This document shows, one piece after another, positions 18,504-63,695 of a stretch of DNA of 64,000 bases. Source of the stretch: a bacterium (GTDB lineage Bacteria; Patescibacteriota; Minisyncoccia; UBA6257; GWB1-50-10); contig JAJYWR010000005.1 of NCBI GenBank assembly GCA_021791395.1, forward strand, positions 21,259-85,258, written 5' to 3'. Numbering within the stretch: position 1 is the first letter of the stretch; every line of letters begins with the position of its first letter. The position numbers and the translations under genes are program-made. The notes beneath the pieces were generated by a model. The model was not told the DNA's origin, did not search any database, and worked only from the letters and a program-made list of their open reading frames with translations.

Positions 18504-20891
18504 TTAGATGACGAGGTTGATAATTCTCCCTTTCACATATACCACTTTTTTGATTTTGGCGCTTCCGAGGGCGGCAGAAACGGTCTCAAGTTTCATCGCT
18601 GCTTCCTTCACCGCTCCTTCTTCCGCGTTGGGGGGGACTATAATGCTCCCCCGCCGCTTGCCGTTCACCTGGGCGACAACCTCAACCACCTCTTCTTTCA
18701 AGAGCGACGGATCGTACGATGGCCACGATTCGAAGTGCACCGACTTCTTGTTCTTCAGAAGATACCACAATTCATCCGCGAGGTGCGGTGCGAACGGCGC
18801 GAGAATTTTCAAAAAATCGCTCCAGACGCCCGCCGGAATGATCACTTCGTCGCTTGCGGCATTCATAAAGATCATCATGGAGCTTATGGCTGTATGGAAC
18901 GCCATTTTTTCAATGTCTTCCCCGACTTTTTTCACCGTCGCTGCAAGAAGGCGCTCGAGCTTTTCGTTCTTCGTTTTTCCGATCTCCTTTTCGTGCGCGG
19001 TGTCCCACGTGCGCCGCAAGAACCGTTTTACTCCTTCGATCCCCTTTGCATCCCAGGCAATCGCCCGATCGAAAGGACCCATGAACATTTCATAGACCCG
19101 CGCAACATCGGCGCCGTATGCCCTGACGATGGTATCGGGATTCACGGCGTTGCCGCGCGACTTCGACATCTTGACACCCCTCTCTCCGAGGATCATTCCT
19201 TGCGCCGTCCGTTTCCGGTACGGTTCGCTTGTCGGAACCAATCCTTGATCGTGGAGAAAGATGTTCCAAAACCGCGAATAGAGCAAATGGAGCGTCACGT
19301 GCTCCATGCCGCCGTTGTACCAATCGATCGGCATCCAGTACTTCAATTTTTTCATCGAGGCGAACTCTTTCGCATTCTTCGGATCGGCATACCGCAAGAA
19401 GTACCAGCTCGATCCGGCCCAATTCGGCATCGTGTCCGTTTCGCGCTTCGCGACCCCTTTGCACTTCGGGCATTTGACGTTCACGAAACTCACGACGGAA
19501 GCCAAAGGCGACTCGCCGTCGTCGCGCGGCTTATAATTCTTGACGGGCGGGAGGACAACCGGCAGATCTTTTTCCGGCACGGGGACATAGCCGCATTTTT
19601 CGCAGTGAATGATCGGAATCGGCTCGCCCCAATACCTTTGGCGCGAAAAGACCCAGTCGCGCAGGTGGTAGTTCACCGTCTTCTTTCCGCCGACAAATTT
19701 TGTGATCTCCGCTTTCGCCCGCTCTGAATCCATCCCGTCAAACTTCCTGGAATTCACGAGGTTTCCCTTTCCTTCCCAAAGTTCGCCCGGCGTTCCTCCC
19801 GAAACAACGTGGATGATCGGCAGATTAAATTTCTTCGCGAACGAGAAGTCGCGCGCATCGTGCGCGGGAACCGCCATAATCGCTCCCGTGCCGTACTCGG
19901 CAAGGACGTAGTCCGCAATCCACACGGGAATTTCTTCGCCGGTCGCCGGATTCACTGCTTTCACGCCCTTGAGCTCCACACCAGTTTTTTCCCGATCCTC
20001 CGCCGTCCGTTCTTCCTCCGTTTCTTTCCGTGCTGTTTTTACATACGCCTCAACCTCATTGAAGTTCGAGATCTTATCCTTCAATTTCTCCACGAGCTCA
20101 TGTTCCGGCGCGAGGACCATATACGTTGCGCCAAATAATGTGTCGGGTCTGGTTGTAAATACCTTAATTCGAAATTCAGAATTCGAAATTCGAAATTCCA
20201 GTTCCGCCCCCTCCGATCGTCCGATCCAGTTCACCTGCTGTGCTTTGATTTCGTCCAGATAATCCACCTTCTCCAAACCCTTCAGGAGCTTGTCGGCGTA
20301 TGCGGTAATTTTGAGCATCCACTGCGCCTTCTTCCGCTTTTCGACTTCCGCGCCGCACCGCTCGCATTTTCCCGCAATCACTTCTTCGTTCGCGAGACCA
20401 ACTTTGTCATTCGGGCACCAGTTGATATCAATCTCCGCTTTATACGCCAAACCTTTTTTGAAAAATTGAAGGAAGAGCCACTGTGTCCATTTATAGTATT
20501 TCGGATCAGTCGTGTTCACTTCGCGGCTCCAATCGAACGAAAATCCCAAACCCTTGAGCTGCTTACGGAAGTTTTCGGTATTCTTCTTCGTCGCGACACG
20601 CGGATCGACGCCCGTTTTGATGGCATAGTTCTCCGTCGGGAGCCCAAACGCGTCCCATCCGATCGGATAGAGCACGTTATACCCTTCCATCCGCCGCTTG
20701 CGAGATACGATATCCATGGCCGTAAGGCTCCGGATATGGCCGATGTGGAGCCCCTGGCCGGACGGGTACGGGAATTCGATGAGCGAATACCACTTTTTCT
20801 TCTTGGAAAAATCGACGGCTTTCCCGATGTCTTGTTTTTCCCATTCTTTCTGCCACTTTTTCTCTATCTTTTTGAAATCGTACTTCGCCAT
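18504..20891 (-). CDS. leuS: leucine--tRNA ligase
   Basis: HIGH is present as PYPSGQGLHIGH, the editing motif is TTRPDTLFGATYMVLAPEH, and KMSKS is VKMSKSRGN. Confidence 0.97.
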   Translation of the reverse strand: MAKYDFKKIEKKWQKEWEKQDIGKAVDFSKKKKWYSLIEFPYPSGQGLHIGHIRSLTAMDIVSRKRRMEGYNVLYPIGWDAFGLPTENYAIKTGVDPRVATKKNTENFRKQLKGLGFSFDWSREVNTTDPKYYKWTQWLFLQFFKKGLAYKAEIDINWCPNDKVGLANEEVIAGKCERCGAEVEKRKKAQWMLKITAYADKLLKGLEKVDYLDEIKAQQVNWIGRSEGAELEFRISNSEFRIKVFTTRPDTLFGATYMVLAPEHELVEKLKDKISNFNEVEAYVKTARKETEEERTAEDREKTGVELKGVKAVNPATGEEIPVWIADYVLAEYGTGAIMAVPAHDARDFSFAKKFNLPIIHVVSGGTPGELWEGKGNLVNSRKFDGMDSERAKAEITKFVGGKKTVNYHLRDWVFSRQRYWGEPIPIIHCEKCGYVPVPEKDLPVVLPPVKNYKPRDDGESPLASVVSFVNVKCPKCKGVAKRETDTMPNWAGSSWYFLRYADPKNAKEFASMKKLKYWMPIDWYNGGMEHVTLHLLYSRFWNIFLHDQGLVPTSEPYRKRTAQGMILGERGVKMSKSRGNAVNPDTIVRAYGADVARVYEMFMGPFDRAIAWDAKGIEGVKRFLRRTWDTAHEKEIGKTKNEKLERLLAATVKKVGEDIEKMAFHTAISSMMIFMNAASDEVIIPAGVWSDFLKILAPFAPHLADELWYLLKNKKSVHFESWPSYDPSLLKEEVVEVVAQVNGKRRGSIIVPPNAEEGAVKEAAMKLETVSAALGSAKIKKVVYVKGRIINLVI
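20164..20198 (-). repeat. in-frame heptamer array (GAATTTC-type, 5 units) inside leuS
   Basis: The coding strand reads GAATTTC GAATTTC GAATTCT GAATTTC GAATTAA, translated as EFRISNSEFRIK. Confidence 0.9.
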
Positions 20892-22627: not shown

Positions 22628-23260
22628 ATGTTCAAGATAGTCATCTCCGACCTCGACGGCACCCTCGTGGATTCCGCCGGCTTTTATTACCGATCGTCGG
22701 TAAGCATCTTCAAAACCTTCGGTGTTCAACCCCCGAGCTTCCAAGCCTTCCGCAGAGAAATAACGGGGAATATACCCGGTTTCTTCTACCGGCACGGCCT
22801 TAGCCGCTCGGTTACCCCCGAAGCCATAGATAAAATGACTTTTTCCTACGTTCGCGAGCATTGGCAGGAATACACCATACACCCCGGCGCACGAACTGCG
22901 CTTGCACTTTGCCGGGGGCTCAATATCCCCTTCTTCATTTTAAGTCATAATATCGACGGCGTGATCAAGAATGCCATCAAGAAATTCGAACTGGGGCTCT
23001 TCGTTACCGAAGCCATTTCTTCCGGCAATAAGAGCGAGTCCCTCTTTGCCATCGTGCGGAAATGCCGCGTTTCACCGCAGGATGTCCTATTTATGGACGA
23101 CACGGCAAGCGGAATACGGGACGGCAAGAACGCCGGTGTTGCAACATTGGGCTTTCTTGGTGGATACGAATCAAAATGGAAGATCAGCCGGGCCCGACCA
23201 GATTTCAAAACGGCCAGCTTTCAGGATGTCATGAGAGTGATCGTCCGACGTCGGATTTAG
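22628..23260 (+). CDS. HAD-superfamily hydrolase (phosphoglycolate-phosphatase-like)
   Basis: Motif I is ISDLDGTLVDS and the distal motif is FMDDTASGIRDGKNAG. Confidence 0.8.
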   Translation: MFKIVISDLDGTLVDSAGFYYRSSVSIFKTFGVQPPSFQAFRREITGNIPGFFYRHGLSRSVTPEAIDKMTFSYVREHWQEYTIHPGARTALALCRGLNIPFFILSHNIDGVIKNAIKKFELGLFVTEAISSGNKSESLFAIVRKCRVSPQDVLFMDDTASGIRDGKNAGVATLGFLGGYESKWKISRARPDFKTASFQDVMRVIVRRRI

Positions 23261-24744
23261 CGGAGGCGAGTAAACAACAGCTCGCCTCTTTTTGTTTTTA
23301 CGCTGCCGCCCTCCCAAATGATGCTCTTCGTGATCTTTTCCGCGGTACCAGGCAGGAACGACTCAATCATAACAGCGACATTGTCCAAAATAGCAACCAT
23401 GTCGAAAACCGCTTTTTCCTTTTCTTCGCGATCGGAAGCGGCCCACGGCTTTTTTTCGTTTACATACCCATCCCCGAAACCGATGAGGTTCCAAATGGCA
23501 CTGAGCGCTTCATGAAATTTGAACCCATCAAGGGCCGCCGCCATTTTTTTCTTCGTCTCTTCGATCTTTTCCGCAACATCTTTTGAAATTTCGCGGTTTT
23601 TCATTTCGTGGAGTCCTTCGCCAAGCGCGAGAACGCGCGCTGCAAAGTTGCCGAGACCATTTGCTAAATTCGCGTGGTAACTTTTATCGAACTTGTCCCA
23701 CGTAAAATCGCCGTCCTCAAAGGGAACCAAATCGTGGAGAAGCCAAAAACGGAGCGCATCCGTGCCGTATTTTTCGACGACCTCAAACGGGTCAACGACG
23801 TTCCCCAAACTCTTCGACATTTTTTGGCCGTTCGAGTTCACAAATCCATGAATCAGTATCTGCCGTGATGTCGGGAGGCCGGCCGACATAAGCATCGCTT
23901 GCCACATGGCCGATTGTTGGCGGAGATTGTCCTTGCCGGCGACTTGCAAAGCATTCGGATGCTCGTTTGTTCCCCAAAAACGTTCGAAGTTTTCTTGGTC
24001 CTCCGGCCAGCCGAGCGTCGAAACATAATTCACCAGAGCGTCGAACCAAACGTACATCACGTGATCGTCGTCCCCCGGCACCGGCACACCCCACGGCATT
24101 TTCAACTTGAGCCGTGAGACGCTGAAATCTTGGAGCCCCGCAGACACGAAATTCTTTATTTCCGTAAGGCGGTGGGAAGGCAGAACGAAATCGTGATATT
24201 TTTCATAAAGATCGAGAAGTGGCTTTTGATACTTTGAAAAACGGAAGAAATAATTTTCTTCTTCAATGACCTCGATTTTTAGATTGGGATGGATCGGACA
24301 CGTGCCGTCTATGAGTTCTGACTCCGTCTTTTCCAACTCGCAGCCGACGCAGTATTTAATTTGATAATTTTTTTTGTAAATATCACCCTTTGCATCACAT
24401 CGCCCCCAGAACTCCTCGACCGCACTTATGTGATGCATATCCGTCGTGCGGACGAAGTTCGTGTAACTCAAGTTGAGCGCCGAGCGGAGCTTGTCGAACT
24501 CGGCTGCTTTTTCGTCGACGTATACCTTCACCTCTTTCCCCGCTTCTCCGGCATTCCGGTATATTTTTTGCCCATGCTCATCCGTACCGGTATTGAAAAT
24601 GACACGCTCGCCCAAAAAATCCCTGTGATAGCGCGCAATGGCGTCCGCTTGAACGATCTCCAGAGCAAAGCCGATGTGCGGCGACGCATTCACATACGGC
24701 AAAGTGGTCGTGATATAAAAATTTTTCTTTTCCATCCTCTTCAA
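23257..24744 (-). CDS. metG: methionine--tRNA ligase
   Basis: It carries PYVNASPHIGF (a HIGH-like motif) and KMSKSLGN. Confidence 0.95.
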   Translation of the reverse strand: MKRMEKKNFYITTTLPYVNASPHIGFALEIVQADAIARYHRDFLGERVIFNTGTDEHGQKIYRNAGEAGKEVKVYVDEKAAEFDKLRSALNLSYTNFVRTTDMHHISAVEEFWGRCDAKGDIYKKNYQIKYCVGCELEKTESELIDGTCPIHPNLKIEVIEEENYFFRFSKYQKPLLDLYEKYHDFVLPSHRLTEIKNFVSAGLQDFSVSRLKLKMPWGVPVPGDDDHVMYVWFDALVNYVSTLGWPEDQENFERFWGTNEHPNALQVAGKDNLRQQSAMWQAMLMSAGLPTSRQILIHGFVNSNGQKMSKSLGNVVDPFEVVEKYGTDALRFWLLHDLVPFEDGDFTWDKFDKSYHANLANGLGNFAARVLALGEGLHEMKNREISKDVAEKIEETKKKMAAALDGFKFHEALSAIWNLIGFGDGYVNEKKPWAASDREEKEKAVFDMVAILDNVAVMIESFLPGTAEKITKSIIWEGGSVKTKRGELLFTRLR

Positions 24745-28080: not shown

Positions 28081-29391
28081 TTAGGATTGTTTCAAACGCT
28101 CTTCCAAATGTGTTCCCAACTCTCCGATCTTCACCCGTTCCTGTTTCATGGTGTCGCGATCGCGGACGGTTACGTCATCGTGCTCCAAGCTATCGAAGTC
28201 GACGGTGACACAGAAGGGCGTTCCCGCTTCGTCCTGCGCGCGGTATCGCTTGCCGATATTTCCCCGGTCGTCCCACGCGACCATCATGTTTTTTTTCAAA
28301 TCGTCGTAGATCTTCTTCGCGGTCTTCACGAGTTCCGGCTTATTCGCGAGAAGCGGAAAGACCGCGACTTTGTACGGCGCGAGGCGCGGATGCAAGCGGA
28401 GCACCGTCCTTATCTCACCATCTTTCACTTTCTCCTCTTTATAGGCGTTCATCAGGAAGAAAAGCGTTGCCCGATCCACACCACCGGACGTTTCAATGAT
28501 ATGCGGGAGGAATTTTTCTTTCGTTTCTTCGTCAAAGTACGTCATGTCCTCGCCCGAAAATTCCTGGTGCCTTCGCACATCCCAGTCGCCCCGGTGATGA
28601 ACACCCTCCATCTCTTTCCATTCGCCTTCCGCATTGTATTCAATATCGAACGCTGCCTTCGCATAGTGGGCTAGCTCGTCCTTTGCGTGCTCCTTGAACC
28701 GCAAATTTTCTTTTTTCATGCCGAGTGAGACATACCAGCCCATCCGCTCTTTCTTCCAATATTCAAATTGCTCCATCGATTCCTTCAGGTCGGGCTTTAC
28801 GTAATACTGGAGCTCCATCTGCTCGAATTCACGCGACCGGAAGGTGAAACCACCCGGCGTAATTTCATTCCGGAAGGCTTTGCCGATTTGCGCCACGCCA
28901 AACGGAATTTTGACGCGCGTCGAACTCAAGATATTTTTGAAATTGACGTGGACGCCTTGCGTGATCTCGCCCCGCAAATACGTTTTGAGTTTTTCTCCTT
29001 CGATGACCCCGAGGTAGGTTTCCACCATCAAGTTGAACTGCTTCGGCTCCGTGAGATCGCCGCCGCAATCCGGGCATTTCTTTTCCGTCAACTGATCAGC
29101 CCTGAATCGGTGGTGGCACTTTTTGCATTCGACGAGCGGATCGGAAAACGATGTCAAGTGTCCCGAAGCTTCCCACACCTTCGGATTCATAATGATCGCG
29201 GCATCCAATCCCGCAACGTCACTCCGTTCCTGAACCATCGACTTCCAAAATTCGTTCTTGATGTTGCGTTTCAGCTCCACCCCGAGAGGACCGTAATCCC
29301 AGGTACCCGCAAGGCCGCCGTAGATCTCGCTCCCGGGAAAAATGAATCCGCGCCGCTTCGCTAAGCTCGTTATTTTTTCCCACATATCCAT
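28081..29391 (-). CDS. glyQS: glycine--tRNA ligase (homodimeric GlyQS type)
   Basis: The N-terminus RRGFIFPGSEIYGGLAGTWDYGPLGVELKRNI is typical of class II GlyRS. Confidence 0.95.
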   Translation of the reverse strand: MDMWEKITSLAKRRGFIFPGSEIYGGLAGTWDYGPLGVELKRNIKNEFWKSMVQERSDVAGLDAAIIMNPKVWEASGHLTSFSDPLVECKKCHHRFRADQLTEKKCPDCGGDLTEPKQFNLMVETYLGVIEGEKLKTYLRGEITQGVHVNFKNILSSTRVKIPFGVAQIGKAFRNEITPGGFTFRSREFEQMELQYYVKPDLKESMEQFEYWKKERMGWYVSLGMKKENLRFKEHAKDELAHYAKAAFDIEYNAEGEWKEMEGVHHRGDWDVRRHQEFSGEDMTYFDEETKEKFLPHIIETSGGVDRATLFFLMNAYKEEKVKDGEIRTVLRLHPRLAPYKVAVFPLLANKPELVKTAKKIYDDLKKNMMVAWDDRGNIGKRYRAQDEAGTPFCVTVDFDSLEHDDVTVRDRDTMKQERVKIGELGTHLEERLKQS

Positions 29392-33898: not shown

Positions 33899-33966
33899 AG
33901 GGACAGTATACCCCTCCCCTTGAGCGATTTCCAGTTCCTTGATACCTTCTATACTACTGGCTTGCT

Positions 33967-35073
33967 ATGAAAATTCTATCGATAGAAACAAGCTGCGATG
34001 AGACGTCAATCGCCTCAGTGGAAGCTTCCGGCGGCATCAGAGCTCCCCGCTTTAAGGTGTTGCAGAACATCGTTTCGTCGCAAATAGCGCTTCACGCCCC
34101 TTTCGGCGGCGTGGTTCCCAACATTGCCAAGCGAGAGCACCTCAAAAATCTACCCATCATCTTTAGGCAAATTTTTGTAAATCCTAAATCAAAAATCCTC
34201 AATCCTAAACAAACACAAAATACTGAGTACAAAATACTAAGCACAAAAGTGGACGTGGTAGCAGTAACAGTGGGTCCGGGTCTTGAGCCGGCTCTTTGGA
34301 CCGGCGTCAATTTTGCAAAGGAAATCCATAAAAACCATTTCCCAAAAGCGAAGCTCATCGGTGTGAACCACATGGAGGGACACCTTTACAGCTTTCTATT
34401 GCCACAGAAAACTCAATTTCCAATTTCCAATTCTCAATTTTCAAAAACGAAAATTTTTCCGGCAGTCGGCCTCGTGGTCTCCGGGGGGCATACCATACTT
34501 CTCCTCATGAAATCCCTCACGGAGTGGAAAAAACTCGGCGAAACACGGGATGATGCCGTTGGAGAAGCATTCGATAAAGTGGCGCGAATGCTCGGTCTCC
34601 CCTATCCCGGCGGACCCGAGATCCAAAGAGCGGCCGCTCCCGGAGACCCGTCATCCGTGAATTTCCCCCGCCCGATGATGAAAGATAAAAACTATGACTT
34701 CAGCTTCTCTGGTCTCAAAACATCAGTACTCTACTATATAAGAGACCACAAAGAGCAATCAAAGAATAAAAATTTCATCGAGGACGTTGCAGCGAGCTTC
34801 CAGGCGGCGGCTGTTGAAACGCTCGTTTATAAAACGGCGCGCGCCGTGCAAGAATTCAAGGCAAAATCTATCATCCTTGCCGGCGGCGTAGCCGCAAACC
34901 AATCGCTCCGTGAGACGCTGGTAAAAACAAGCAAGGAGCTCGGCGTACACTTTTTTGCGCCGCCTATGGCATACAACACCGACAATGCCGCAATGATCGC
35001 CGCCGCCGCATATATTCAAACACTCAAGAAAAAGAACCGCCGTATCACGGCCCAAGCGAATTTGAATCTTTGA
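33967..35073 (+). CDS. tsaD: tRNA N6-adenosine threonylcarbamoyltransferase
   Basis: It carries ILSIETSCDETS, GGVVPNIAKREH, VTVGPGLEPAL, HMEGH and VVSGGHT. It also contains two AT-rich low-complexity inserts. Confidence 0.9.
   Translation: MKILSIETSCDETSIASVEASGGIRAPRFKVLQNIVSSQIALHAPFGGVVPNIAKREHLKNLPIIFRQIFVNPKSKILNPKQTQNTEYKILSTKVDVVAVTVGPGLEPALWTGVNFAKEIHKNHFPKAKLIGVNHMEGHLYSFLLPQKTQFPISNSQFSKTKIFPAVGLVVSGGHTILLLMKSLTEWKKLGETRDDAVGEAFDKVARMLGLPYPGGPEIQRAAAPGDPSSVNFPRPMMKDKNYDFSFSGLKTSVLYYIRDHKEQSKNKNFIEDVAASFQAAAVETLVYKTARAVQEFKAKSIILAGGVAANQSLRETLVKTSKELGVHFFAPPMAYNTDNAAMIAAAAYIQTLKKKNRRITAQANLNL
34178..34248 (+). repeat. in-frame AT-rich module pair inside tsaD (AAATCC-type heptamers, then an AAACAC..AAAATAC module)
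   Basis: The sequence is TAAATCC TAAATCA AAAATCC TCAATCC TAAACAA, then ACACAAAATACTGAGTACAAAATACTAAGCAC. It is translated as VNPKSKILNPKQTQNTEYKILSTK. Confidence 0.9.
34414..34455 (+). repeat. in-frame heptamer array (CAATTTC-type, 6 units) inside tsaD
   Basis: The units are CAATTTC CAATTTC CAATTCT CAATTTT CAAAAAC GAAAATT, translated as QFPISNSQFSKTKIF. Confidence 0.9.
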
Positions 35074-35110
35074 CCTGAAAAGCTTTATTTTAAGGGGAAA
35101 ATCGGCCATA

Positions 35111-37336
35111 ATGGAACACATGAACGCCGACTTTTCGAAGCCGTACGACCCGAAAGCGACCGAGTCCATGATCTACCAACAATGGCTCGATTCCGGCTAT
35201 TTCAATCCGGACAATTTAAAAATTAAAAATCCAAAAATCCAAAATTATGTAGTGTACATGCCCCTCCCGAACGTGACAGGAACACTCCACATGGGGCACG
35301 CTTTGGACAATACCGGATCGGATATTTTGGTCCGGTACTACCGCATGAAGGGCTTCCGGACACTCTGGCTTCCCGGAACCGATCATGCCGGCATCGCGAC
35401 GCAATACAAAGTTGAAAAAGAATTGCGCAAGGAGGGCGCCTCCCGGTTCGAGCTGGGACGAGAGAAATTTATCGAGCGCGTCTGGAAGTGGAAAGAAGAG
35501 TACGGCGGCATTATCATCGATCAACTCAAAAAACTGGGCGCCTCGGCCGATTGGTCGCGCCTTCGGTTCACGATGGACCCGGATTATACCAAGGATGTCC
35601 TCTCGGCTTTCGTTCATTACTACGAAAAAGGCCTCATTTATCGCGGCGAGCGCACGGTCAACTGGTGCCCGCGCTGTGGTACCAGCCTTTCCGAACTCGA
35701 GCTCGAGCATCAGGAAGAAAAAGGGTCACTGTGGTACATCAAATACCCGCTCATCGATACCAAACACGAAATACCTAATACAAAATACATTATTGTAGCC
35801 ACAACGCGCCCCGAGACCATGCTCGGCGACACTGCCGTCGCCGTGAATCCGAACGACAAGCGGTATGCGAAATTCATCGGGAAAACCATACGGCTCCCCC
35901 TCACCAATCGGGAGATACCGATCGTCGCCGACTTGAAGATAGATCCCGGATTCGGAACGGGGGCCGTGAAGGTCACGCCGGCGCACGATATCCTTGATTT
36001 TGAGATCGGCGGGCGGCACAAGCTCGCATCGATTCAAGTCATCGATGAACGGGGGAAAATGAACGCGAACGCCGGATCGTATGCCGGCATGAAAACGGAA
36101 GAGGCCCGGAAAGCGATCGTCGAACGACTGGCATCCGAGGGGCTGCTCGAAAAAGAGGAGTCTTATGTGCACAACATTACCATCTGCTATCGCTGCGGAC
36201 ACGTCATCGAGCCGATCCCCTCAATGCAATGGTTCCTTCAGATGGACAAGCTTGCCGCAAACGCCTTGAAGACGGTTCAATCTGGTAAAGTGGACATTCA
36301 GCCAGAAAATTTTCAAAAAATCTATTTCGATTGGTTAGAAAACATACGTGATTGGACGATCTCACGCCAATTGTGGTGGGGGCACCAGCTTCCTGTTTGG
36401 TTTTGTAAAAACCAAACAGGAAGCTCCAATTCTCAATTTCTAATTTCTAATAAAAATTTATCAGCCGAAGACTTCGTGGTATCCGTGGAAAAACCGGCAA
36501 CGTGTCCAATTTGTAAAAATTGCGACATGATCAAATCCCCCGACGTTCTCGATACCTGGTTCTCGTCGGCTCTGTGGCCCTTTGCCGGTCTTTCAGAATC
36601 CGACCGGAAAAATTATTATCCCGGCAACTTTGTTTCGAATGCACGCGACATTTTAAATCTCTGGGATGCCCGCATGATATTTTCCGGACTTGAATTTATG
36701 GGAAAGCCGCCTTTCCAAAATGTTTTCGTCCACGGTACCATCCTCACAAAAGACGGCAAGCGCATGTCGAAAAGCTTGGGAACCGGTATTGATCCGTTGA
36801 AATACATCGACCAATACGGCGCGGATGCGACGCGCTTCGCCGTCATCTGGCAGGCAAACGGTCAAGACATCCACTGGGACGAAGCGGCGGTCATGGCCGG
36901 CAGAAAATTTTGCAACAAGATATGGAACGCATCCCGCTTCGTCTTGGAACGAAGCGGAAACTCGAAATTCGACCTGCCTCTGCAGACAGAAACTCAAAAT
37001 TCATTGACCCCGCAGACCGAGGCCGATAAAAAAATACTGGCGAAACTCGCAGAAGTGAAAAAACAAACCGAGCGATACATTGAAACATTCGAATTTGCAA
37101 AGGCGCTCCAAAATCTTTACGACTTCTTTTGGCACGATTTCTGCGATATTTATCTCGAAGAATCAAAAGGACAGATCGCTGATGAGAAAACGGGGTCTTC
37201 CACGCAAGCGATTTTGCGGAATGCCCTTGTTGAGTCTCTTAAAATGCTCCATCCGTTCATGCCGTTCGTAACTGAAGCCGTCTATCAAAACCTCGACGAG
37301 CGGAGCAATCAATTCCTCATGACAACCGAATGGTGA
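35111..37336 (+). CDS. valS: valine--tRNA ligase (741 aa; appears to lack the long C-terminal coiled-coil of many bacterial ValRS)
   Basis: It carries PNVTGTLHMGHA, the editing motif ATTRPETMLGDTAVAVNP, and KMSKSLGT. Confidence 0.95.
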   Translation: MEHMNADFSKPYDPKATESMIYQQWLDSGYFNPDNLKIKNPKIQNYVVYMPLPNVTGTLHMGHALDNTGSDILVRYYRMKGFRTLWLPGTDHAGIATQYKVEKELRKEGASRFELGREKFIERVWKWKEEYGGIIIDQLKKLGASADWSRLRFTMDPDYTKDVLSAFVHYYEKGLIYRGERTVNWCPRCGTSLSELELEHQEEKGSLWYIKYPLIDTKHEIPNTKYIIVATTRPETMLGDTAVAVNPNDKRYAKFIGKTIRLPLTNREIPIVADLKIDPGFGTGAVKVTPAHDILDFEIGGRHKLASIQVIDERGKMNANAGSYAGMKTEEARKAIVERLASEGLLEKEESYVHNITICYRCGHVIEPIPSMQWFLQMDKLAANALKTVQSGKVDIQPENFQKIYFDWLENIRDWTISRQLWWGHQLPVWFCKNQTGSSNSQFLISNKNLSAEDFVVSVEKPATCPICKNCDMIKSPDVLDTWFSSALWPFAGLSESDRKNYYPGNFVSNARDILNLWDARMIFSGLEFMGKPPFQNVFVHGTILTKDGKRMSKSLGTGIDPLKYIDQYGADATRFAVIWQANGQDIHWDEAAVMAGRKFCNKIWNASRFVLERSGNSKFDLPLQTETQNSLTPQTEADKKILAKLAEVKKQTERYIETFEFAKALQNLYDFFWHDFCDIYLEESKGQIADEKTGSSTQAILRNALVESLKMLHPFMPFVTEAVYQNLDERSNQFLMTTEW
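35213..35247 (+). repeat. in-frame A-rich array inside valS (AAAAATCC x2 core)
   Basis: The sequence is AATTTAAAAATTAAAAATCCAAAAATCCAAAATTA, translated as NLKIKNPKIQNY. It lies just before the HIGH region. Confidence 0.85.
35761..35793 (+). repeat. in-frame AAACAC..AAATAC module inside valS
   Basis: The sequence CAAACACGAAATACCTAATACAAAATAC matches tsaD 34210..34237 at 24/28 positions. It is translated as TKHEIPNTKY, just before ATTRPET. Confidence 0.85.
36427..36461 (+). repeat. in-frame heptamer array (CAATTTC/TAATTTC-type) inside valS
   Basis: The units are CAATTCT CAATTTC TAATTTC TAATAAA AATTTAT, translated as SNSQFLISNKNL. It shares the 15-mer TCCAATTCTCAATTT with tsaD. Confidence 0.9.
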
Positions 37337-38031
37337 CCGACTACCTCAACCTGATCCCGGTATTCGTAATTGCCGCTATCCCGGCCCTCGTCTGGCTTCT
37401 CTTTTTTCTGAAAGAGGATTTGCATCCGGAGCCGAAAAAGATGCTCGCCATAACGTTCCTTGCGGGTATGGCATCGAGCATTCCCGTCCTCTTCATCGAG
37501 CTCGTGTTTCAAAAAATAGCCGTCACGCCGCTCCACAGCATTCTCCTCTTCATCATCGGCATCGCTATCATCGAAGAAGTTTTTAAATTCTTTGCGACCT
37601 ATCTCGTCAACGCAGAAAGCAAGTACCTCGACGAGCCCATTGATGCCATGATCTACATGATTACGGCCGCCTTGGGTTTCGCGACGATAGAAAATTTCTT
37701 CGTCGTACGGAACAGCCTCGACATCGTGAACCTGAAGACCATTTTCGACATGTTGAATGCAGTTTCCCTCCGCTTCGTCGGCGCTACGCTTCTCCACGCG
37801 CTTGCTTCTGGCATCGTCGGCTACTACTGGGCGCTCGACCGTTTCAAGAAAAAGCGCGGAGCGGTTTTGGTCGGCCTTTTTATAGCAGCTGCGGTCCATG
37901 CGATTTTCAACTTCTTCGTCGTACAATTCCAATCAAGTGATATTTTCTACCCGACGTTTTTTCTCGTCTTCATCGCATTTTGGGTCCTTGCCGACTTTGA
38001 GCGTACCAAAAGAATAAGCAACGGTGTATAA
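37330..38031 (+). CDS. PrsW-family intramembrane protease
   Basis: It is multi-pass and carries IIEEVFKFFA, ALGFATIENF and GATLLHALASG. It overlaps the valS stop. Confidence 0.75.
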   Translation: MVTDYLNLIPVFVIAAIPALVWLLFFLKEDLHPEPKKMLAITFLAGMASSIPVLFIELVFQKIAVTPLHSILLFIIGIAIIEEVFKFFATYLVNAESKYLDEPIDAMIYMITAALGFATIENFFVVRNSLDIVNLKTIFDMLNAVSLRFVGATLLHALASGIVGYYWALDRFKKKRGAVLVGLFIAAAVHAIFNFFVVQFQSSDIFYPTFFLVFIAFWVLADFERTKRISNGV

Positions 38032-40119: not shown

Positions 40120-42087
40120 TTAAAGGAACGGAACAATGAGGAGGGCTACAATGTTGATAACCTTAATCAACGGATTGATCGCGGGACCTGCGGTATCCTT
40201 GTAAGGATCGCCGACGGTATCTCCGGTAACGGCGGCCTTGTGAGCATCCGATCCCTTGCCACCGAAGTTGCCCGATTCGATGTATTTCTTTGCATTATCC
40301 CACGCGGCTCCGCCAGAAGTCATGGAAATCGCGATAAAAAGTCCCGAGACGATTGTACCAATCAAGAACCCGCCGAGGGCCTCCTTTCCCAAAATGAATC
40401 CCACGAGGAGCACCATGACGACCGGCAAAAGCGCCGGGACAATCATTTCTCGGAGAGCCGACTTCGTCACGATGTCGACGGCCTTCTTGTAATCGGGTTT
40501 TGCCGAACCTTCGAGAAGCCCCTTGATTTCCCGAAACTGCCTTCGGATTTCTTCGACAATCGAGCCGGCCGCCTTGCCGACCGATTTCATGGCCATCGAT
40601 CCGAATAGGTAGGGGATCGAAGCTCCTAAAATGAGGCCGATTAAGACGTATGGGTTTTGGATGTCGAACGTGACATTCGAAGAGATCTTTTGAACCGCGT
40701 CCGTGTATGCGCTAAAGAGCACAAGTGCGGCGAGCCCGGCCGATGCGATGGCATATCCTTTCGTTACCGCTTTCGTGGTGTTCCCGACGGCATCCAAGGC
40801 GTCCGTGATCTTCCGGACCTCTTCCGGAGCACCGCTCATTTCGGCGATACCGCCGGCATTATCCGTGATTGGCCCAAATGAATCAATGGAAACAATGATG
40901 CCGGCAACGGAAAGCATCGAAACAGCGGCGATGGCGACGCCATAGATGCCCGCAAGCAAGTACGATCCAATAATGCCGGCAACGATGACAAGAATCGGCA
41001 AGAAGGTCGCTTCCATACCAACCGAAAGGCCAATAATGATGTTTGTTCCGTGTCCCGATTTCGAAGCATCGGCGATGTTCTTCACCGGCTTGTACTTTTT
41101 CGAAGTGTAATAATCCGTGATGATAACCATGAGCGCCGTCACGAGAAGACCGATGAGGCTCGAAAAGAATATATTCATAGCATTCCCTCCCATGAATGAC
41201 TGAGCGGCAAAATAGAACAAAATCGCTGCCACAATCAAGGCGACAGTGAGCCCTTTGTAGAGCGCGCCCATAATCGATTCGCTCTTGCCAAGTTTTACAA
41301 AGAAACTTCCGATGATTGAAGCAATAATCGCAAGGCCGCCCATGACGAGCGGAAAGATGAGTTGGGCGCCGGAAAGCGCAAGTGCGCTTCCGATCAAGAT
41401 CGAAGCGGTTAAAGTTACCGCATACGTCTCAAAAAGGTCGGCAGCCATGCCGGCGCAGTCGCCGACATTGTCGCCGACATTGTCGGCGATCACGCCCGGA
41501 TTCCGCGGATCATCTTCCGGAATCCCGGCTTCAACTTTCCCGACCAAATCGGTCCCGACATCCGCTGCTTTTGTAAAAATGCCGCCGCCAAGGCGGGCAA
41601 AAACCGAAATCAAACTTGCGCCGAATCCAAGGCCAATCAAACTCCGGATATCATGTGTTAAGAGAAAAAATCCCGAGACTGCAAGGAGACCGACGCCGAC
41701 AACAAGGAGTCCCGTGACCGATCCGGCCTTAAAGGCGAGCGAAAGCGCCGATTTCAACCCATGGCTTGCCGCATCCGTCGTTTTCGCGTTCGACCGGACG
41801 GCAACGCTCATACCGAGAAATCCAGCGAGAGCCGACGCGATGGCGCCGACCAAAAATCCGACGGCCGTAAGCCAGCCGAGTGCGAGATAAATTGCAACGA
41901 AAAGGACAACTGCAACAATGCCGACCGTCTTGTACTGCCGACCGAGATATGCGGACGACCCTTCTTGAATCGCTCTCGAAATCTCCTTCATTTTGTCGCT
42001 TCCCGAACTCTGCTTTTTGAGCCATAACGCGAGGTATGCAGTATAGAAAACCGCAAGAACTACAGGACCGAAAATCAAATAATTCAT
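40120..42087 (-). CDS. hppA: membrane-integral (H+/Na+)-translocating pyrophosphatase
   Basis: It is a 655-aa multi-pass protein with [38 protein letters not shown] and [15 protein letters not shown]. Confidence 0.95.
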
Positions 42088-43511: not shown

Positions 43512-44150
43512 TTAAATATTTGTCAATATATCCTCTTTTGTAAATTCACCGACTCGCGTACGTACGAGTTCCGCGACATACCCGCCGACACCCAAAGTAT
43601 CCCCCACGTCCCGGGCAAGCGATCGGACGTATACGCCGGGGCCGGTTACAACTTTCAATTCCAGATACGGCGGATTATATGAAAGGATTTTGATCGAAAA
43701 AATTTTCACGCGGCGCGAATTCATCTCGGGTATTTTTCCGCGGCGCGCGAGCTTATATGCCGGCACGCCTTTTATTTTCAGGGCACTGTATACCGGCGGT
43801 ACTTGGTCGACGACGCCGACGAACGACGGTAAAATTTTTTCAATGCGCTCGATATCCGGAAAACGTTCCCGCTCGACAATTTCTTTTTCCCCTTCTTCAT
43901 CGCCCGTCGTGCTCCGCACGCCGAGCCTTATCTTTACGAGATATTCTTTTTCTTCCCCTGCCGCCATATTGAGTCGCTTCGTTGCTGCGCGCCCAACGCC
44001 GACGACGAGGATGCCCGACGCCAATGGATCGAGTGTCCCCGCGTGCCCGATCTTTCTTGTCCCCATTTTCTTTTTCAATCGATTGAGGAACTCAGCCGAT
44101 GTCGGTCCCTTCGGTTTCCACGCGGCGAATATTTCACCTCCCTCATTCAT
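43512..44150 (-). CDS. truB: tRNA pseudouridine(55) synthase
   Basis: The catalytic motif is GHAGTLDPLASGILVVGVG. Confidence 0.9.
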   Translation of the reverse strand: MNEGGEIFAAWKPKGPTSAEFLNRLKKKMGTRKIGHAGTLDPLASGILVVGVGRAATKRLNMAAGEEKEYLVKIRLGVRSTTGDEEGEKEIVERERFPDIERIEKILPSFVGVVDQVPPVYSALKIKGVPAYKLARRGKIPEMNSRRVKIFSIKILSYNPPYLELKVVTGPGVYVRSLARDVGDTLGVGGYVAELVRTRVGEFTKEDILTNI

Positions 44151-44153
44151 GTG

Positions 44154-44519
44154 TTAAATATTTTCGTAATGTTTCACGTCGAACCCATTTCCCCAATTCT
44201 TCGTGAGCGCAATGACGTCGAGTCGCCATCCTTTTTTGTCGTCGATTAATTCTTCATGGGCTCCCGCATATACTCGCGCCGCTCTCGTAAATTTCTCAAT
44301 CTTTGATTTTGTCATCTGCTCTTCCGCTTCGATGCCGGGACCGACAACCGTTTTTACTTCGACGAAGACCAGTACCTTGTCCGGCGCGACGGCAACGATA
44401 TCGAGTTCCCCCCATTTTTTTCTGTTATTTCTTTCAATGATACGCCAACCGATCTTTTGCAAATATCTCGAAGCAAAATTTTCTCCCCGTCTTCCCAATT
44501 CGGATCTTCCATCCCTCAT
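44154..44519 (-). CDS. YraN-family (UPF0102) predicted endonuclease
   Basis: It carries GENFASRYLQKIGWRIIERN...GELDIVA...VFVEVK. The ORF is trimmed to MRDGRSELG. Confidence 0.8.
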   Translation of the reverse strand: MRDGRSELGRRGENFASRYLQKIGWRIIERNNRKKWGELDIVAVAPDKVLVFVEVKTVVGPGIEAEEQMTKSKIEKFTRAARVYAGAHEELIDDKKGWRLDVIALTKNWGNGFDVKHYENI

Positions 44520-44620
44520 ATATAAACTATACATCGAAAGCGTTGACATCAAAAAGCTGCCGTAATAAAGTAATGAAAGTTTATAAAAATCAAAATCATC
44601 TCACGAAAGGTAGGTGCGAA

Positions 44621-45262
44621 ATGAGAATCATTTTCCTGGTAGCCGCATTGTTTTTATCGGGATGCGCTTCGTCATTCTTTTCGGGCAAAAATCATGAACC
44701 TCTTCCGGAAAAGTTCTATGCCACCATCACAACCAAGGACGGCTACGGTTCCTCAATAAATCTCGGGGAAGGATATTTTTTATCCTGCAGCCACGTCATC
44801 AGAAACGATGCCGGCAAATTCGATAAAAAAATATGCCTGATGGAAGAATTCAAAACCGGACCTAAAATAGATTCTTCGGTAACGATAATTTCTGTAGACA
44901 CCCTCAATGATCTGGTACTTCTCAAATCTTCGAAATTGATCAATAAAACGAACATCAGATTCGCTCACGATCCTGTCCTTGAAAGGGTATATTGGGTTCA
45001 GCCGGCATTCTATTCAGATGGCAATCTTTTCTTTTTTGTATCCGGCAGGATATCCGGCTTCAATCCCGGGAATGTATTCCTCGATAAACCTGTTTTCGAT
45101 GGAGCTTCCGGTACTGGCATATTTGATAGAAATGGCAATTTAGTTGGCATGGCCCAAAGTACATTCATATATAGTAAGAATCTTCTGTTTGGTTCTTTGG
45201 CTAGTCCCCAAAAAATAGAGAAATTTCTGATCAAAAATAGAATAAAAATCCCCAAAATATGA
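44621..45262 (+). CDS. trypsin-like serine protease family lipoprotein (candidate)
   Basis: The ORF is trimmed to MRIIFLVAALFLSGCAS (a lipobox). Candidate triad residues are CSHVIRN, NDLVLLK and FDGASGTGIFD. GC is lower than in neighbouring genes. Confidence 0.55.
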   Translation: MRIIFLVAALFLSGCASSFFSGKNHEPLPEKFYATITTKDGYGSSINLGEGYFLSCSHVIRNDAGKFDKKICLMEEFKTGPKIDSSVTIISVDTLNDLVLLKSSKLINKTNIRFAHDPVLERVYWVQPAFYSDGNLFFFVSGRISGFNPGNVFLDKPVFDGASGTGIFDRNGNLVGMAQSTFIYSKNLLFGSLASPQKIEKFLIKNRIKIPKI

Positions 45263-45278
45263 ATTTTGGGGATTTTTT
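45248..45278 (+). terminator. intrinsic terminator overlapping the stop codon of the protease gene
   Basis: The stem is ATCCCCAAAAT paired with ATTTTGGGGAT, with loop ATGA, followed by TTTTTT. Confidence 0.8.
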
Positions 45279-45683: not shown

Positions 45684-45689
45684 GTTACT

Positions 45690-45718: not shown

Positions 45719-45728
45719 TTTCTCCCAA

Positions 45729-53732: not shown

Positions 53733-53743
53733 GGGGAAGCCTG

Positions 53744-56771: not shown

Positions 56772-56853
56772 GATGATTGTTGCTCAAGCGCCGTTGATAG
56801 GGCCCCAAGCGAAGAAATGATAGCAGGAACGACCAAGGATGTCCACCTTGCAG

Positions 56854-56986
56854 AAAACCCAAAATCCAAATTCCAAATGCCACATCAGACTTCGATAATC
56901 AAACATCAAAGTGTCTTTCATTTTTTCATTCGGATTTTGATATTGATTGGGCATTTGTCATTTGAGCCTTGTCATTTTAAAATAGG
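56854..56986. repeat. paired 7-nt-periodic arrays in the divergent rpsA / 56990 promoter region
   Basis: The left array is AAAACCC AAAATCC AAATTCC AAATGCC. The right array has T-rich units of opposite polarity (..GATTTTG ATATTGA TTGGGCA TTTGTCA TTTGAGC CTTGTCA TTTT..). Confidence 0.75.
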
Positions 56987-60835: not shown

Positions 60836-62139
60836 ATTTTTCAAAACAACAACTCATCATCTTCGGAGGAATCGGCCTCTTGATCCTTGTCCTCATTCTC
60901 GTCTTCGCGGGAATTCTCCCCGGATCGAAGACCTCGACAAATAACCCGGCAAACACCCAGGGGGGTCTTACAATGTGGATCTACGGCGATCAACCTTCCT
61001 TTTACAATCAAGCTATCGCCGCATTCAACGCAACCTATCCGCACGTCAAGGTGGACGTTCGAGCATTCGGTAATTACGGAACCTATTCCCAAACGCTTCT
61101 CGAGGCCATGGCGTCCGGCCAAGCACCCGATATTTTCATGATCCCCTCAACCGAACTCCCAACGTACTTCAATAAGATCGTCCCCGTGAGCTCGGCGCTC
61201 TTCTCGCCGTTCAACTTGCAGCAAGATTTCCCCGCAGTCGTCTACCAAGATTTCGTATCCGGACAATACGTGTACGGACTCCCACTTTCCCTCGATACGA
61301 TGGCTCTTTTTTACAACAAAGATCTCTTTACAAAGGCGGGGATTGTGTATCCGCCCGCGACCTGGCAAGATTTCGACCGCATCGTTCCGTCCCTCACGCA
61401 AATTTCATCGACCGGCACCATCGATCAAGCAGCGGCAGCCATCGGCACGTCGAACGCAAATATCGACCACGCGACCGATCTCTTGTCGCTCCTTATGCTC
61501 CAAACGGGCACCACGATAACCAACGCAACAAAGAATCAGGCGACGTTTGCCGTCGACACCGGCTTCAACGCCTTCAAATTTTACACTCAATTTTCTGACC
61601 CCAAGAATAATCTGTATACGTGGAACGACAATATGCCCGATTCGCTCGATGCGTTTGCAACAAACAAAGTCGCCATGATCTTCGATTATGAATCGGCCGT
61701 GAACCAACTGAAGGCAAAAAATTCTTTCTTGAACTACGGTATTGCGCCCGTTCCCCAACCGGCTTCGTCAACGGCATACGTTTCCTACCCGGACTATGCC
61801 GGCTTCGTCGTTTCCAAGCAGTCGAGGTACCAGTCGCTTGCGTGGACGCTCATTCTCTCCATGACAACAAATGCCCAAAACGCCAATTCGTACGTCACCG
61901 CATCGGGCAACCCCCCGGCGCTCCTTTCACTTATTCAAAGCCGCCTCCAAGACCCGAATCTTTCGGTCTTCGCAAAACAAGCTCTCTACGCCCGGTCGTG
62001 GTATGGACCGAACCGGACTTCTATTGCAAGCGTCCTTTCGCAGATGATCGATGCATACGTGACCGGCCAAACAAGCCTTCAAACCGCCGTGAAAGAGGCG
62101 GCGAACCAAGTGACGAGTATAATGAATAGTGGACTCTGA
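60832..62139 (+). CDS. extracellular solute-binding protein (ABC-type, family 1-like), TM-anchored, with no adjacent permease or ATPase genes
   Basis: It has an N-terminal TM helix. The pattern is LTMWIYGD...[19 protein letters not shown]...[15 protein letters not shown]. Confidence 0.7.
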
Positions 62140-63695
62140 TGAAACGGGGGATTATCAAAAAATTGGCGATTACATCCGCTTTCGGGGCATTTATCGTCCT
62201 CTTTTTTGCGGCTCACGGATTCGCCCTTGCCCAAGGCACCGGCATCTGGGCTGATACGAGCTGCGCGGCGCGGAGTACGACGGGCGGTCCCGTCGGCCCC
62301 TGCGATTTCTGCGATGCAATCATCGTCACAAACAACATCATCCAGATGCTCTTTAAGTTCTCGCTTGGAATCGGAACGCTCATGATCGTCATCGGCGGCG
62401 TTGCCATGATCATTTCGGCGGGTAGTAAGGAAAAATTCGAAAAAGGAAAAAAAATTCTCGTGAAAGCGGTGACCGGCGTCGCTATTGCTCTCCTCTCGTG
62501 GATCATCGTCTCGACGGTCATCCGCGTCCTCACAGGGAGTTCCGCATTCCCCTGGAACCAAATTTCCTGCACCCACAACCCGCAATTGCAACCCTTGAAT
62601 TCGCTGCCGAATCTCGCAACCGCCTCAAGCACATATATGAAGGTTGCCTCGAACGGCTCGTATGCCTGCAGTGCGAGCGGCAATACCTGCAACAACTCTG
62701 ACTTCAGTGGTTCATTCTGCAGTACAGCAACATGCTATGCAGGCGACAAGACCGAATGCGGACAACCGGCCGTCGGAACCACTACCGTGTGGGCTCCGGC
62801 AAATTCGGCGACGACCTACGGCAGCGCGACGATCTACGATTGCTCCGCGGGGTATACTTCCCAATCGGCCTGTGAAAGCGGTTCCGGAACTTCCTGCACG
62901 CCCATTACGACAAATGGAGCAAACCCCCAAGATTCCCAGCCGACTCAAACGGCCGCAAGTCAATACATCATCCATGCGGCAATCGGGAACGATGGAACGT
63001 TCCACTGCGGCACGTCGACTATTCAAAATGTTCCCGCCAACGCACAAATTTACGAATTGGGGCAGATGCCGTTTTTAACCGATAAATGGACTAATCTCGG
63101 CGGCTTTACCGACGCCTGCAAATCCGAGATAATCAACGGCTCGATGCAGGACAACTGGTGCGGCGCGAACGTCGTCAACAATCTTGACGAAATGAACTGG
63201 ATAACGGGCTGCGTCCCGTTCGGAGTAAATCTCGGCACTGATTGGACATATTTCAAGTGGGCACTGAACGGCGGGGCACTTTGCAGCCCCTCCGGAAAGA
63301 GCTGCAATGACATCGTGGGGGCGGACCCCAACGATCCGTGTCTCGTAGGGCGCAAGTCCATCATTAAGTGCGGTGAAGGAGGAACGACGTACGCTAAAAT
63401 TTCCAACAACGGCGTGTGGGCCTGCGGATACCCGGCAAGCCAAATACAGGGGGCTCCCATCAACGCCACTACATATACCGTCGGGCAGGGTTACTTCATA
63501 AATACTTCGCTATGTGGTGAGAAGGTTTTGCCGAACTTTCCCACCACGCCCCCCAACGCCGTTTACGCCAAAAAACTGAGTGACGGTAAGTATACCTGCA
63601 GCTTTATTGACTGCAATATGCCGAATTCCGATCCGAATGCCGACTGCATCATCCTCCCTGGACTTGAGCAATGCGAAGGACAAGTCCTACACTGA
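62139..63695 (+). CDS. TrbC/VirB2-like (T4SS-pilin family) domain fused to a ~370-aa Cys-rich extracellular domain
   Basis: It has a signal peptide, a CDFCD pair, and two TM helices flanking the GGVAMIISAGSKEKFEKGKK loop. The C-terminal region then has about 23 Cys by my count and repeated x-SNG-x-Y/W-x-C modules. Confidence 0.6.
   Translation: MKRGIIKKLAITSAFGAFIVLFFAAHGFALAQGTGIWADTSCAARSTTGGPVGPCDFCDAIIVTNNIIQMLFKFSLGIGTLMIVIGGVAMIISAGSKEKFEKGKKILVKAVTGVAIALLSWIIVSTVIRVLTGSSAFPWNQISCTHNPQLQPLNSLPNLATASSTYMKVASNGSYACSASGNTCNNSDFSGSFCSTATCYAGDKTECGQPAVGTTTVWAPANSATTYGSATIYDCSAGYTSQSACESGSGTSCTPITTNGANPQDSQPTQTAASQYIIHAAIGNDGTFHCGTSTIQNVPANAQIYELGQMPFLTDKWTNLGGFTDACKSEIINGSMQDNWCGANVVNNLDEMNWITGCVPFGVNLGTDWTYFKWALNGGALCSPSGKSCNDIVGADPNDPCLVGRKSIIKCGEGGTTYAKISNNGVWACGYPASQIQGAPINATTYTVGQGYFINTSLCGEKVLPNFPTTPPNAVYAKKLSDGKYTCSFIDCNMPNSDPNADCIILPGLEQCEGQVLH

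Follow-up and report, generated by a model that had tools for sequence, protein, structure and literature searches.

Translated heptanucleotide repeats in the valS gene of a patescibacterium and its relatives, in part adjoined by hairpins that mirror host codons

Introduction

Repeated DNA inside conserved genes has been described in several systems, and here we compare these with valS, the valine-tRNA ligase (ValRS) gene of a patescibacterium (Minisyncoccia; UBA6257; GWB1-50-10), and with two further genes, tsaD and leuS, on the same stretch of 64,000 nucleotides (positions 21,259 to 85,258 of contig JAJYWR010000005.1, assembly GCA_021791395.1; hereafter the window). In all three genes tandem arrays of 7-nt units lie in frame within the coding sequence (CDS), and at several sites, in the window or in its relatives, the array adjoins a hairpin whose arms are a run of the gene's own codons and their reverse complement.

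Rickettsia palindromic elements (RPEs), associated with the work of Ogata and colleagues in 2000, are said to be elements of 100-150 bp with a family consensus and a self-contained palindromic structure that sit in frame in protein genes of Rickettsia. They share with the valS inserts that repeated DNA lies in frame in conserved housekeeping genes and is translated, surface-exposed and compatible with function; unlike RPEs, the inserts described here lack a consensus, being tandem heptamers of 20-45 nt, and form their hairpin with flanking gene sequence. In-frame insertion at permissive sites of conserved genes is thus found here too, but a family consensus among dispersed copies is not; units differ widely, the exception being an 87-nt cassette duplicated within the valS of one relative (L005). 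Housekeeping proteins of Plasmodium carry low-complexity, Asn/Lys-rich insertions, which are codon-based repeats in a genome of ~80% A+T. Both these and the valS inserts are A/T-rich, slippage-prone, non-conserved, placed in loops of conserved enzymes and thought to be largely neutral, but the genome here has 50% G+C and the unit is 7 nt long. The Borg elements are extrachromosomal, and their genic tandem repeats have units that are multiples of three and create disordered protein regions; as in our case, fast-evolving tandem nucleotide repeats inside open reading frames (ORFs) add disordered segments, whereas the units here are of 7 nt and lie in chromosomal core genes.

Heptanucleotide simple sequence repeats (SSRs) are known from bacteria, e.g., the cyanobacterial short tandemly repeated repetitive sequences (STRR), GGGAATC of Xanthomonas and TAACTGA of Beggiatoaceae (PMC4679880, PMC4692102). 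These papers report an excess of heptamers among long SSRs in bacteria, together with a hypothesis of slippage tied to the polymerase footprint (citing Mrazek 2007). Like the arrays described here, the published ones are few-copy, head-to-tail, over-represented, lineage-specific in unit and variable between relatives, with slippage as the proposed cause. The great majority of them, however, lie between genes and are G-rich or have a single fixed sequence, whereas ~80-86% of ours lie in ORFs, in frame and including essential aminoacyl-tRNA synthetase genes, and use many, mostly A/T-rich units that are often coupled to a host-codon hairpin. Template-switch mutations, which are documented to alter coding sequence (PMC8794818, PMC8604942, PMC7202029), resemble our hairpins in giving a reverse-complement copy, a perfect stem and homogenised arms. 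The known cases are, however, isolated events. Ours recur, at defined sites in several genes of a phylum-level group, and invariably the inverted copy lies on the 3' side and a heptamer array is attached. None of these nearest systems joins an in-frame non-triplet repeat in essential genes with a host-codon-templated hairpin, and our literature search found no paper that joins heptamer or heptanucleotide repeats with Patescibacteria or Parcubacteria.

Heptanucleotide arrays inside core genes

The window has a G+C content of ~50% and its proteins find their best matches in Patescibacteria (Jorgensenbacteria-like); the nearest genome is 84-86% identical (86% in ValRS) and the best metagenome match reaches 65%. 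A first-pass annotation made from the letters of the window had singled out three AT-rich in-frame modules in valS, at 35213-35247 (peptide NLKIKNPKIQNY, 88.6% A+T), 35761-35793 (TKHEIPNTKY before ATTRPET, 75.8% A+T) and 36427-36461 (SNSQFLISNKNL, 85.7% A+T), in a gene with 50.3% A+T overall. Positions and peptides are as it gave them, and the sites, which it described as variable in ValRS, are all presence/absence indel hot spots in an alignment of 30 orthologues. The patches are in-frame insertions or replacements, all three being gaps in the Thermus thermophilus enzyme (1GAX, matched by the valS product with E=1e-195), of 7 residues at site 2 and of 10 residues at the site 3 array. The three inserts are thus real, but the count was too low, as a fourth, decayed array (site 4) and two perfect hairpins, one of them the 18-bp hairpin that adjoins its third module, had been overlooked; also absent from that annotation was the 7-nt periodicity.

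According to Tandem Repeats Finder (TRF), each valS, tsaD and leuS patch has a period of 7 or 14, with 3.0-4.7 period-7 units at 35216-35247, 35757-35789 and 36430-36451, and the patches of all three genes contain at least three head-to-tail 7-nt copies. As three heptamers make 21 nt, i.e., seven codons, such an array passes through all three frames and gives a 7-residue repeat. In a codon alignment of the window valS with six relatives, AAT TCA AAA TTC AAA ATT CAA, or (AATTCAA)n, encodes NSKFKIQ, and ATT TCC AAT TCT CAA TTT CCA, or (AATTTCC)n, encodes ISNSQFP; (AAAATTC)n and (AATTTCC)n are further translated as NSKFKIQ and ISNFQFP, respectively. The decayed array of site 4 corresponds to clean arrays at the orthologous position of relatives (e.g., GNSKFEIRNLKLT in L008), and the leuS array occupies a position homologous to valS site 2 (VFTTRPDT vs ATTRPET). 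An AlphaFold2 model of ValRS built on the 30-sequence alignment (mean predicted local distance difference test score, pLDDT, of 80) falls below 50 at residues 220-222 (site 2), 437-452 (site 3) and 617-630 (site 4), placing these three sites in predicted low-confidence loops, and renders site 1 (residues 36-44) as a moderate-confidence coil. We consider it secure that the patches are translated heptanucleotide repeats in permissive loops.

At a threshold of at least 15/21 matches the window holds eight period-7 arrays (one in leuS, two in tsaD, three in valS and two intergenic) vs 0.2 expected in shuffles, and the other 60 of its 63 ORFs, among them metG, glyQS, gyrA, ftsK and ftsH, have none. 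The first-pass observation that metG and glyQS lack such modules therefore stands, as does its rejection of a general compositional drift, with 3/63 ORFs affected and no period-7 array in a 50-kb stretch around valS of Escherichia coli. Its proposal that the valS patches are related to those of tsaD and leuS is right in that all are the same kind of array, and the individual likenesses on which it drew are present: the 15-mer TCCAATTCTCAATTT has exactly two copies, at 34426 (tsaD) and 36425 (valS), tsaD 34210-34237 and valS 35761-35788 match at 24/28 positions, the doublet AAAAATCC AAAAATCC lies at 35225-35240, and the NPK peptide occurs in both ValS and TsaD. Its discrete shared modules I, II and III, in contrast, do not hold up, as the likeness between genes is what similar heptamer units give (AATTTCC/AATTCTC, AAATCC(T), AAATAC(N)), short and confined to the level of the unit, and units vary widely across genomes. 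For the 15-mer, pattern searches allowing up to 3 mismatches gave no match beyond the tsaD/valS pair, and modules 1 and 2 had no extra copies. Given that 17 repeated 15-mers occur in the window vs 1-8 in shuffles, the exact shared 15-mer carries little weight alone and we did not use it as evidence of mobility; its weight comes from its membership of two arrays with the same repeat unit. As a marker of common descent we tried the shared irregular unit AATTCTC, which occurs in 18/71 arrays and differs by a single substitution from AATTTTC, the most frequent unit.

TRF also reported a G/C-containing repeat, ATGCCGA, of period 7 (or 12) at 63618-63647, near the 3' end of the ORF at 62139..63695.

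Arrays across related Patescibacteria

For the comparison we took valS loci of related Patescibacteria, 80 from genomes and 80 from metagenomes (1.85 Mb in all), in two independent sets, i.e., the window plus L001-L086 (1.36 Mb) and L087-L166 (0.49 Mb), with ORF-based gene calls in which a long ORF has at least 120 codons. The first set contained 164 period-7 arrays vs 2-21 for periods 5, 6 and 8-12, and the second 146 vs at most 6 for any other period, the harmonic 14 apart, so that period 7 exceeds every other non-harmonic period ~8-fold or more. All loci lie around valS, which is itself a hot spot of arrays, and the overall density of 8.6 arrays per 50 kb has to be read beside the 2.9 found outside the tsaD-valS core. 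Long ORFs contain 126/160 and 126/146 arrays in the two sets. Units are diverse, from AAATTCC, AAAATTC, AAAAATC, AATTTTC and AAAAATT to AAGCGAC and AGTCCGG. The sense strand has more A than T in 100/126 CDS arrays; as 63/126 arrays lack any open frame in the reverse complement (a mean of 0.85 open frames vs 2.0 in sense), selection on the reading frame explains much of this orientation bias. Four sites in ValRS and two in TsaD bear arrays recurrently, in lineages that are only 52-65% identical in ValRS.

Hairpins that mirror host codons

At site 3 of the window the array abuts a hairpin (RNA fold -32.8 kcal/mol, z -5.35; DNA fold z -6.9) whose left arm consists of the conserved QLPVWF codons and whose right arm, their reverse complement, encodes KNQTGSS. 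The inserts at sites 3 (18 bp) and 4 (9 bp) are each the reverse complement of adjacent sequence joined to it in a perfect stem, as in template switching or quasipalindrome formation, and the position of site 4 bears a hairpin together with an array in L007, L008, L015, L024, L025, L028, L035, L049 and L050. Folding of upstream sequence gave no significant hairpin for valS sites 1 and 2 (a weak 5-bp stem at the former, none at the latter), the leuS array and the tsaD arrays of the window; the hairpin upstream of tsaD 34414..34444 is degenerate in the window and perfect in L001, L002, L004, L005 and L006.

The association is polar. Counting perfect inverted repeats of at least 9 nt within 60 nt of an array, CDS arrays have a hairpin upstream in 32/126 cases and downstream in 4/126 in the first set, and in 18 vs 0 cases in the second; the right arm ends 0-4 nt from the array. 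Inverted repeats of at least 10 nt were seen in 9/600 random windows of 155 nt, and the 50-mers upstream of arrays form better folds than those taken downstream or at random (p = 4e-4 and 1e-3). An inverted repeat of 9 nt or more is present at valS site 3 in 15/36 genes with a long insert, 1/27 with an intermediate segment and 0/76 without insert, and a hairpin with covarying arms occurs only in insert-bearing relatives. These comparisons use the length of the inverted repeat in each sequence; a column-wise count of pairs was dropped because the centre of the palindrome shifts between lineages (loops span 0-8 nt).

The arms follow the codons of each lineage. Site 3 pairs CCT GTT TGG TTT T with AAAACCAAACAGG and CCT GTC TGG with CCAGACAGG, and also CCA ATC TGG with CCAGATTGG and GTT TAT TTC TG with CAGAAATAAAC. 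Likewise in TsaD, GCC AAC TGG (ANW) is followed by CCA GTT GGC (PVG) and GCT AAT TGG by CCA ATT AGC (PIS), and the Ser codon of YSFLL sets the residue after QK. Since the arms track host codons in both valS and TsaD, some of the residues that an insert adds result from translation of the reverse complement of neighbouring codons.

All compared sequences are metagenome-assembled and polymerases can make inverted chimeras by template switching in vitro, so an artefact of assembly or amplification (e.g., chimeric inverted repeats) has to be considered. Its probability is practically negligible: the same in-frame inserts recur in independent assemblies from different projects and countries, site 3 of the window resembles that of L003 and L004, L091, L092 and L093 are identical across samples, and ORFs stay intact with hairpin arms that follow lineage-specific codons.

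A further reading of the same hairpins is that hairpin and A/U-rich, G-poor tract form a functional nucleic-acid element, selected for ribosome pausing at domain boundaries, mRNA decay, Rho loading or an internal promoter. Such an element would account for perfect hairpins whose arms covary over deep divergence, for the high stability of the site 3 fold, for the position of arrays where domains meet (upstream of HIGH, at the editing-domain entry and in the Zn-finger insertion) and for the unusual conservation of synonymous sites in the site 3 hairpin and array between the window and L003. We nevertheless hold it to be rather unlikely. Neither valS sites 1 and 2 nor the leuS array has a significant hairpin, and close relatives without inserts are evidently viable. 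The promoter activity that the first-pass annotation had envisaged for the modules finds no counterpart in their letters, as none of the six consensus promoter-like hits predicted in 33900-37400 falls inside a module, the modules have no promoter-like hexamer pair, and terminator-like hits in that interval are at chance level. No Rfam family is represented there (only seven tRNAs in the window reach the gathering score), and a programmed -1 frameshift site does not fit either, with valS a single continuous ORF and the structure upstream of the arrays, not downstream. The stems are Watson-Crick perfect, with no G-U wobble among four usable interruptions (a very small sample), which templated copying predicts and selection on RNA does not require, and template switching alone yields covariation (PMC8794818). 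Although a regulatory role of hairpin and A-rich tract is possible, the data can be explained without one, and the hairpin is absent at half of the sites.

Turnover of arrays between relatives

Arrays change in copy number and in unit between related genomes. The valS genes of L003 and L004 differ at site 3 by exactly 21 nt, i.e., three units, in the codon alignment, and those of L002 and L007, 95% identical overall, show spikes of divergence at the modules. At site 1 of this latter pair (3105-3140 in L002) the array has kept its length while all units together turned from AAAAATT into A(N)ACCCC, and with them changed the peptide, from NKNSKLKIKNY to AAKPHTPHPKPY, i.e., an A/T-rich Lys/Asn loop has become Pro/His-rich. 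The valS ORF is intact in every relative. With intact ORFs, no indels among near-identical strains and essential host genes, the arrays do not behave as phase-variable contingency loci.

This turnover bears on whether the Lys/Asn/Ser/Gln-rich, 7-residue repeats were selected as surface loops for the sake of the protein, e.g., for tRNA contacts or episymbiotic interactions. The repeated use of the same ValRS and TsaD sites in distant lineages would agree with such an adaptation, as would peptides that are basic, polar and exposed in the model. We consider it very unlikely, however, given that peptides are replaced wholesale between genes as close as those of L002 and L007, that a 7-nt period, no multiple of 3, points to an origin at the DNA level, that KNQTGSS, PVG and PIS are dictated by the reverse complement of upstream codons, that pLDDT is low at these sites and that the same arrays are present in non-coding DNA.

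Origin of the arrays

Replication slippage together with template switching, filtered by selection on the reading frame and tolerated in surface loops, is probably, though by no means certainly, the best explanation. Arrays would arise and change at the DNA level by slippage, coupled at several sites to intrastrand template switching. Conserved codons at hairpin sites contain natural mini-palindromes (GTTTTGTAAAAC in W-F-C-K-N, GTTCTGGAAC in V-L-E), and at such a short palindrome (e.g., TGGTTTTGTAAAAC in W-F-C-K-N) the nascent strand may fold back and copy the upstream codons, thereby creating a perfect hairpin that the same process would later keep perfect. Template switching is reported to create perfect hairpins in one step and to keep them perfect, mimicking compensatory evolution (PMC8794818, PMC8604942). 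The known excess of heptamers among bacterial SSRs and the footprint hypothesis of slippage (PMC4679880, PMC4692102) also speak for this explanation. Stalling at the base of the hairpin would then promote 7-nt slippage on the sole side where the protein tolerates extra residues; the array would abut the right arm because the left arm sits in residues that refuse insertions, so that only slippage products on the right-arm side survive. Selection would retain an insert only if it is in frame, free of stops (mostly with the A-rich, G-poor strand as sense) and placed in a surface loop. The peptides added in this way most likely serve no specific function and are passengers.

Several observations weigh against this explanation. 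It does not account for a period of 7 rather than another number. Non-coding arrays have no hairpin association (1/34 upstream, 2/34 downstream), and many of the hairpin cases are orthologous sites, so that independent events number far below 50. A single 7-nt slip would shift the frame of an essential gene, therefore growth must proceed by 21-nt steps or paired events, and the clean 21-nt indel between L003 and L004 is the only one found; strains at least 99.9% identical show no variation in array length, i.e., the arrays are not hypermutable on that timescale. Between L002 and L007 the (ATACAAA)n array of site 2 has been swapped for an unrelated one of the (AAATTTC) type, which is hard to reach by stepwise slippage. 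In DNA, site 3 of the window (36383-36461) shares 90% identity with the same site of L003 and L004, which are more distant and to which the gene as a whole is 75% identical; only 3/24 codons for the same amino acid differ there vs 46% gene-wide. Its hairpin and array have no relation to those of L002, L001 and L006, although these are closer relatives, a pattern that agrees better with recombination or transfer than with evolution in place and suggests recombinational exchange or differential turnover. The valS of L005 (P0020) holds the 87-nt AT-rich cassette NDEF(K/R)MTNDVKELKNLEIDSKFKIQNSKF at both site 2 and site 3 (3621-3735 and 4332-4462) with one mismatch; P0022 and P0039 also bear it at both sites, and the two copies of one genome resemble each other more than they do those of other genomes. 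Finally, units are identical in 8% of comparisons within a locus vs 2.5% between loci (p = 0.009).

The replacement of whole arrays in genes 95% identical, the conflict between module and gene phylogenies and the duplicated cassette fit recombinational exchange or dedicated insertion better than slippage, which makes these serious rivals. In this view hairpin-array units are exchangeable or mobile mini-cassettes, written or swapped between sites and genomes by a dedicated process, for which candidates are recombination after DNA uptake, footprints of a hairpin-forming nuclease or transposase with P-nucleotide-like flank copies and filler, and a reverse transcriptase that snaps back and synthesises reiteratively. 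Hairpin opening leaves footprints in V(D)J and hAT excision, and the order of flank, inverted flank and added bases seen here resembles these; the sharing of units among arrays of one locus would also follow. We find cassettes doubtful all the same. No element sequence is conserved, with units as different as AAAAATT and AGTCCGG, and a repeat search of 33900-37400 and the codon alignments showed no terminal inverted repeats or target-site duplications flanking the arrays, as miniature inverted-repeat transposable elements would have. The right arm always copies the local flank and was therefore made on site rather than imported; simple P-nucleotides are at odds with loops of 0-8 nt and with palindrome centres that shift; the arrays of the window have no candidate enzyme gene beside them; and concerted change of units at constant length is typical of tandem-repeat dynamics. 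It is conceivable, if unlikely, that Patescibacteria of the Paceibacteria type own a dedicated polar DNA-writing process that inserts cassettes of inverted-flank hairpin plus heptamers at defined sites of core genes, later exchanged between genomes; the agent may be a hairpin-forming nuclease or transposase that leaves a footprint, or else a polymerase or reverse transcriptase that snaps back and synthesises 7-nt units reiteratively. If true, this would be a new way of making protein segments, part of the peptide being the reverse complement of neighbouring codons.

Under slippage and template switching, which we continue to prefer, the arrays offer a natural, many-times replicated system for the birth of protein segments from DNA-level processes, with a simple and testable rule by which the reverse complement of the upstream codons, once translated, gives the residues that follow the loop. 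One would expect essential genes to be purged of non-triplet repeats, but here these are the dominant repeat class and lie mostly inside ORFs across a large bacterial radiation, which bears on the old and unexplained excess of heptameric repeats in bacteria. For the annotation and alignment of patescibacterial proteins, lineage-specific insertions in marker genes affect both phylogenomics and structure prediction. The arrays may also help to explain the evolution of reduced genomes with few repair functions.

Features of the window

The arrays, hairpins and genes on which the comparison rests are listed in Table 1.

Table 1 Arrays, hairpins and genes in the window (TRF, Tandem Repeats Finder)
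Feature	Position	Strand	Description	Basis or remark
valS	35111..37336	+	valine-tRNA ligase, 741 aa; host gene	ORF list and translation; top homologues Patescibacteria ValRS
valS site 1 array	35216..35247	+	heptamer/octamer array, TTAAAAA / AAAAATCC units; encodes KIKNPKIQN	TRF period 7 and 8; 16/21 period-7 matches; 5' of HIGH motif
valS site 2 array	35757..35789	+	ATACNAA units, period 7/14; encodes DTKHEIPNTKY	TRF; before ATTRPET, editing-domain entry
valS site 3 hairpin	36387..36425 (arms 36387-36404 / 36408-36425)	+	perfect 18-bp inverted repeat, 3-nt loop	repeat search
valS site 3 array	36426..36461	+	AATTCTC/AATTTCT heptamers; encodes NSQFLISNKNL	TRF 36430-36451, period 7; abuts hairpin right arm
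valS site 4 hairpin	36934..36957	+	CCGCTTCGT cttgga ACGAAGCGG; 9 bp; left arm = conserved SRFV codons	sequence; DNA fold z -3.46
valS site 4 decayed array	36958..36975	+	AAACTCG AAATTCG ...; encodes GNSKFD	sequence; absent from the first-pass annotation
tsaD	33967..35073	+		immediately upstream of valS
tsaD arrays	34178-34209; 34214-34248	+	(TAAATCC)n; 14-mer (CACAAAATACTAAG)n	TRF; absent from L001/L002/L004 TsaD (codon alignment)
tsaD array	34414..34444	+	(CAATTTC)n; encodes QFPISNSQFS	TRF
leuS	18504..20891	-
leuS array	20166..20198	-	(GAATTTC)n; encodes EFRISNSEFRI	TRF; directly before VFTTRPDT
metG	23257..24744	-		array-free
glyQS	28081..29391	-		array-free
Non-coding heptamer array	56851..56886	.	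AAAACCC AAAATCC AAATTCC AAATGCC	TRF; divergent intergenic region

Other features of the window were noted in passing. An in-frame tandem repeat of 12 nt, GTCGCCGACATT x2.7, lies at 41458-41489 inside a 655-aa ORF (40120..42087, minus strand), which synteny with L003 and L006 suggests to be a H+-pyrophosphatase. The 16-mer CTTCATATATATGAAG, which contains a palindrome, has two copies at gene boundaries (6663-6678 and 9443-9458) and may be operator-like. A gene with a RelA/SpoT domain at 9554-10621 (minus strand) has many AT-rich islands (9692-10295) and lowered G+C and may be acquired. The region 44000-46000, upstream of ftsK, is apparently largely non-coding and has, especially at 45209-45723, a G+C of 0.42, AT-rich islands and 9-nt repeats (45414-45445). 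ARAGORN placed a tRNA-Ile with anticodon TAT at 53743-53816 (minus strand), adjoining a tRNA-Val (TAC).

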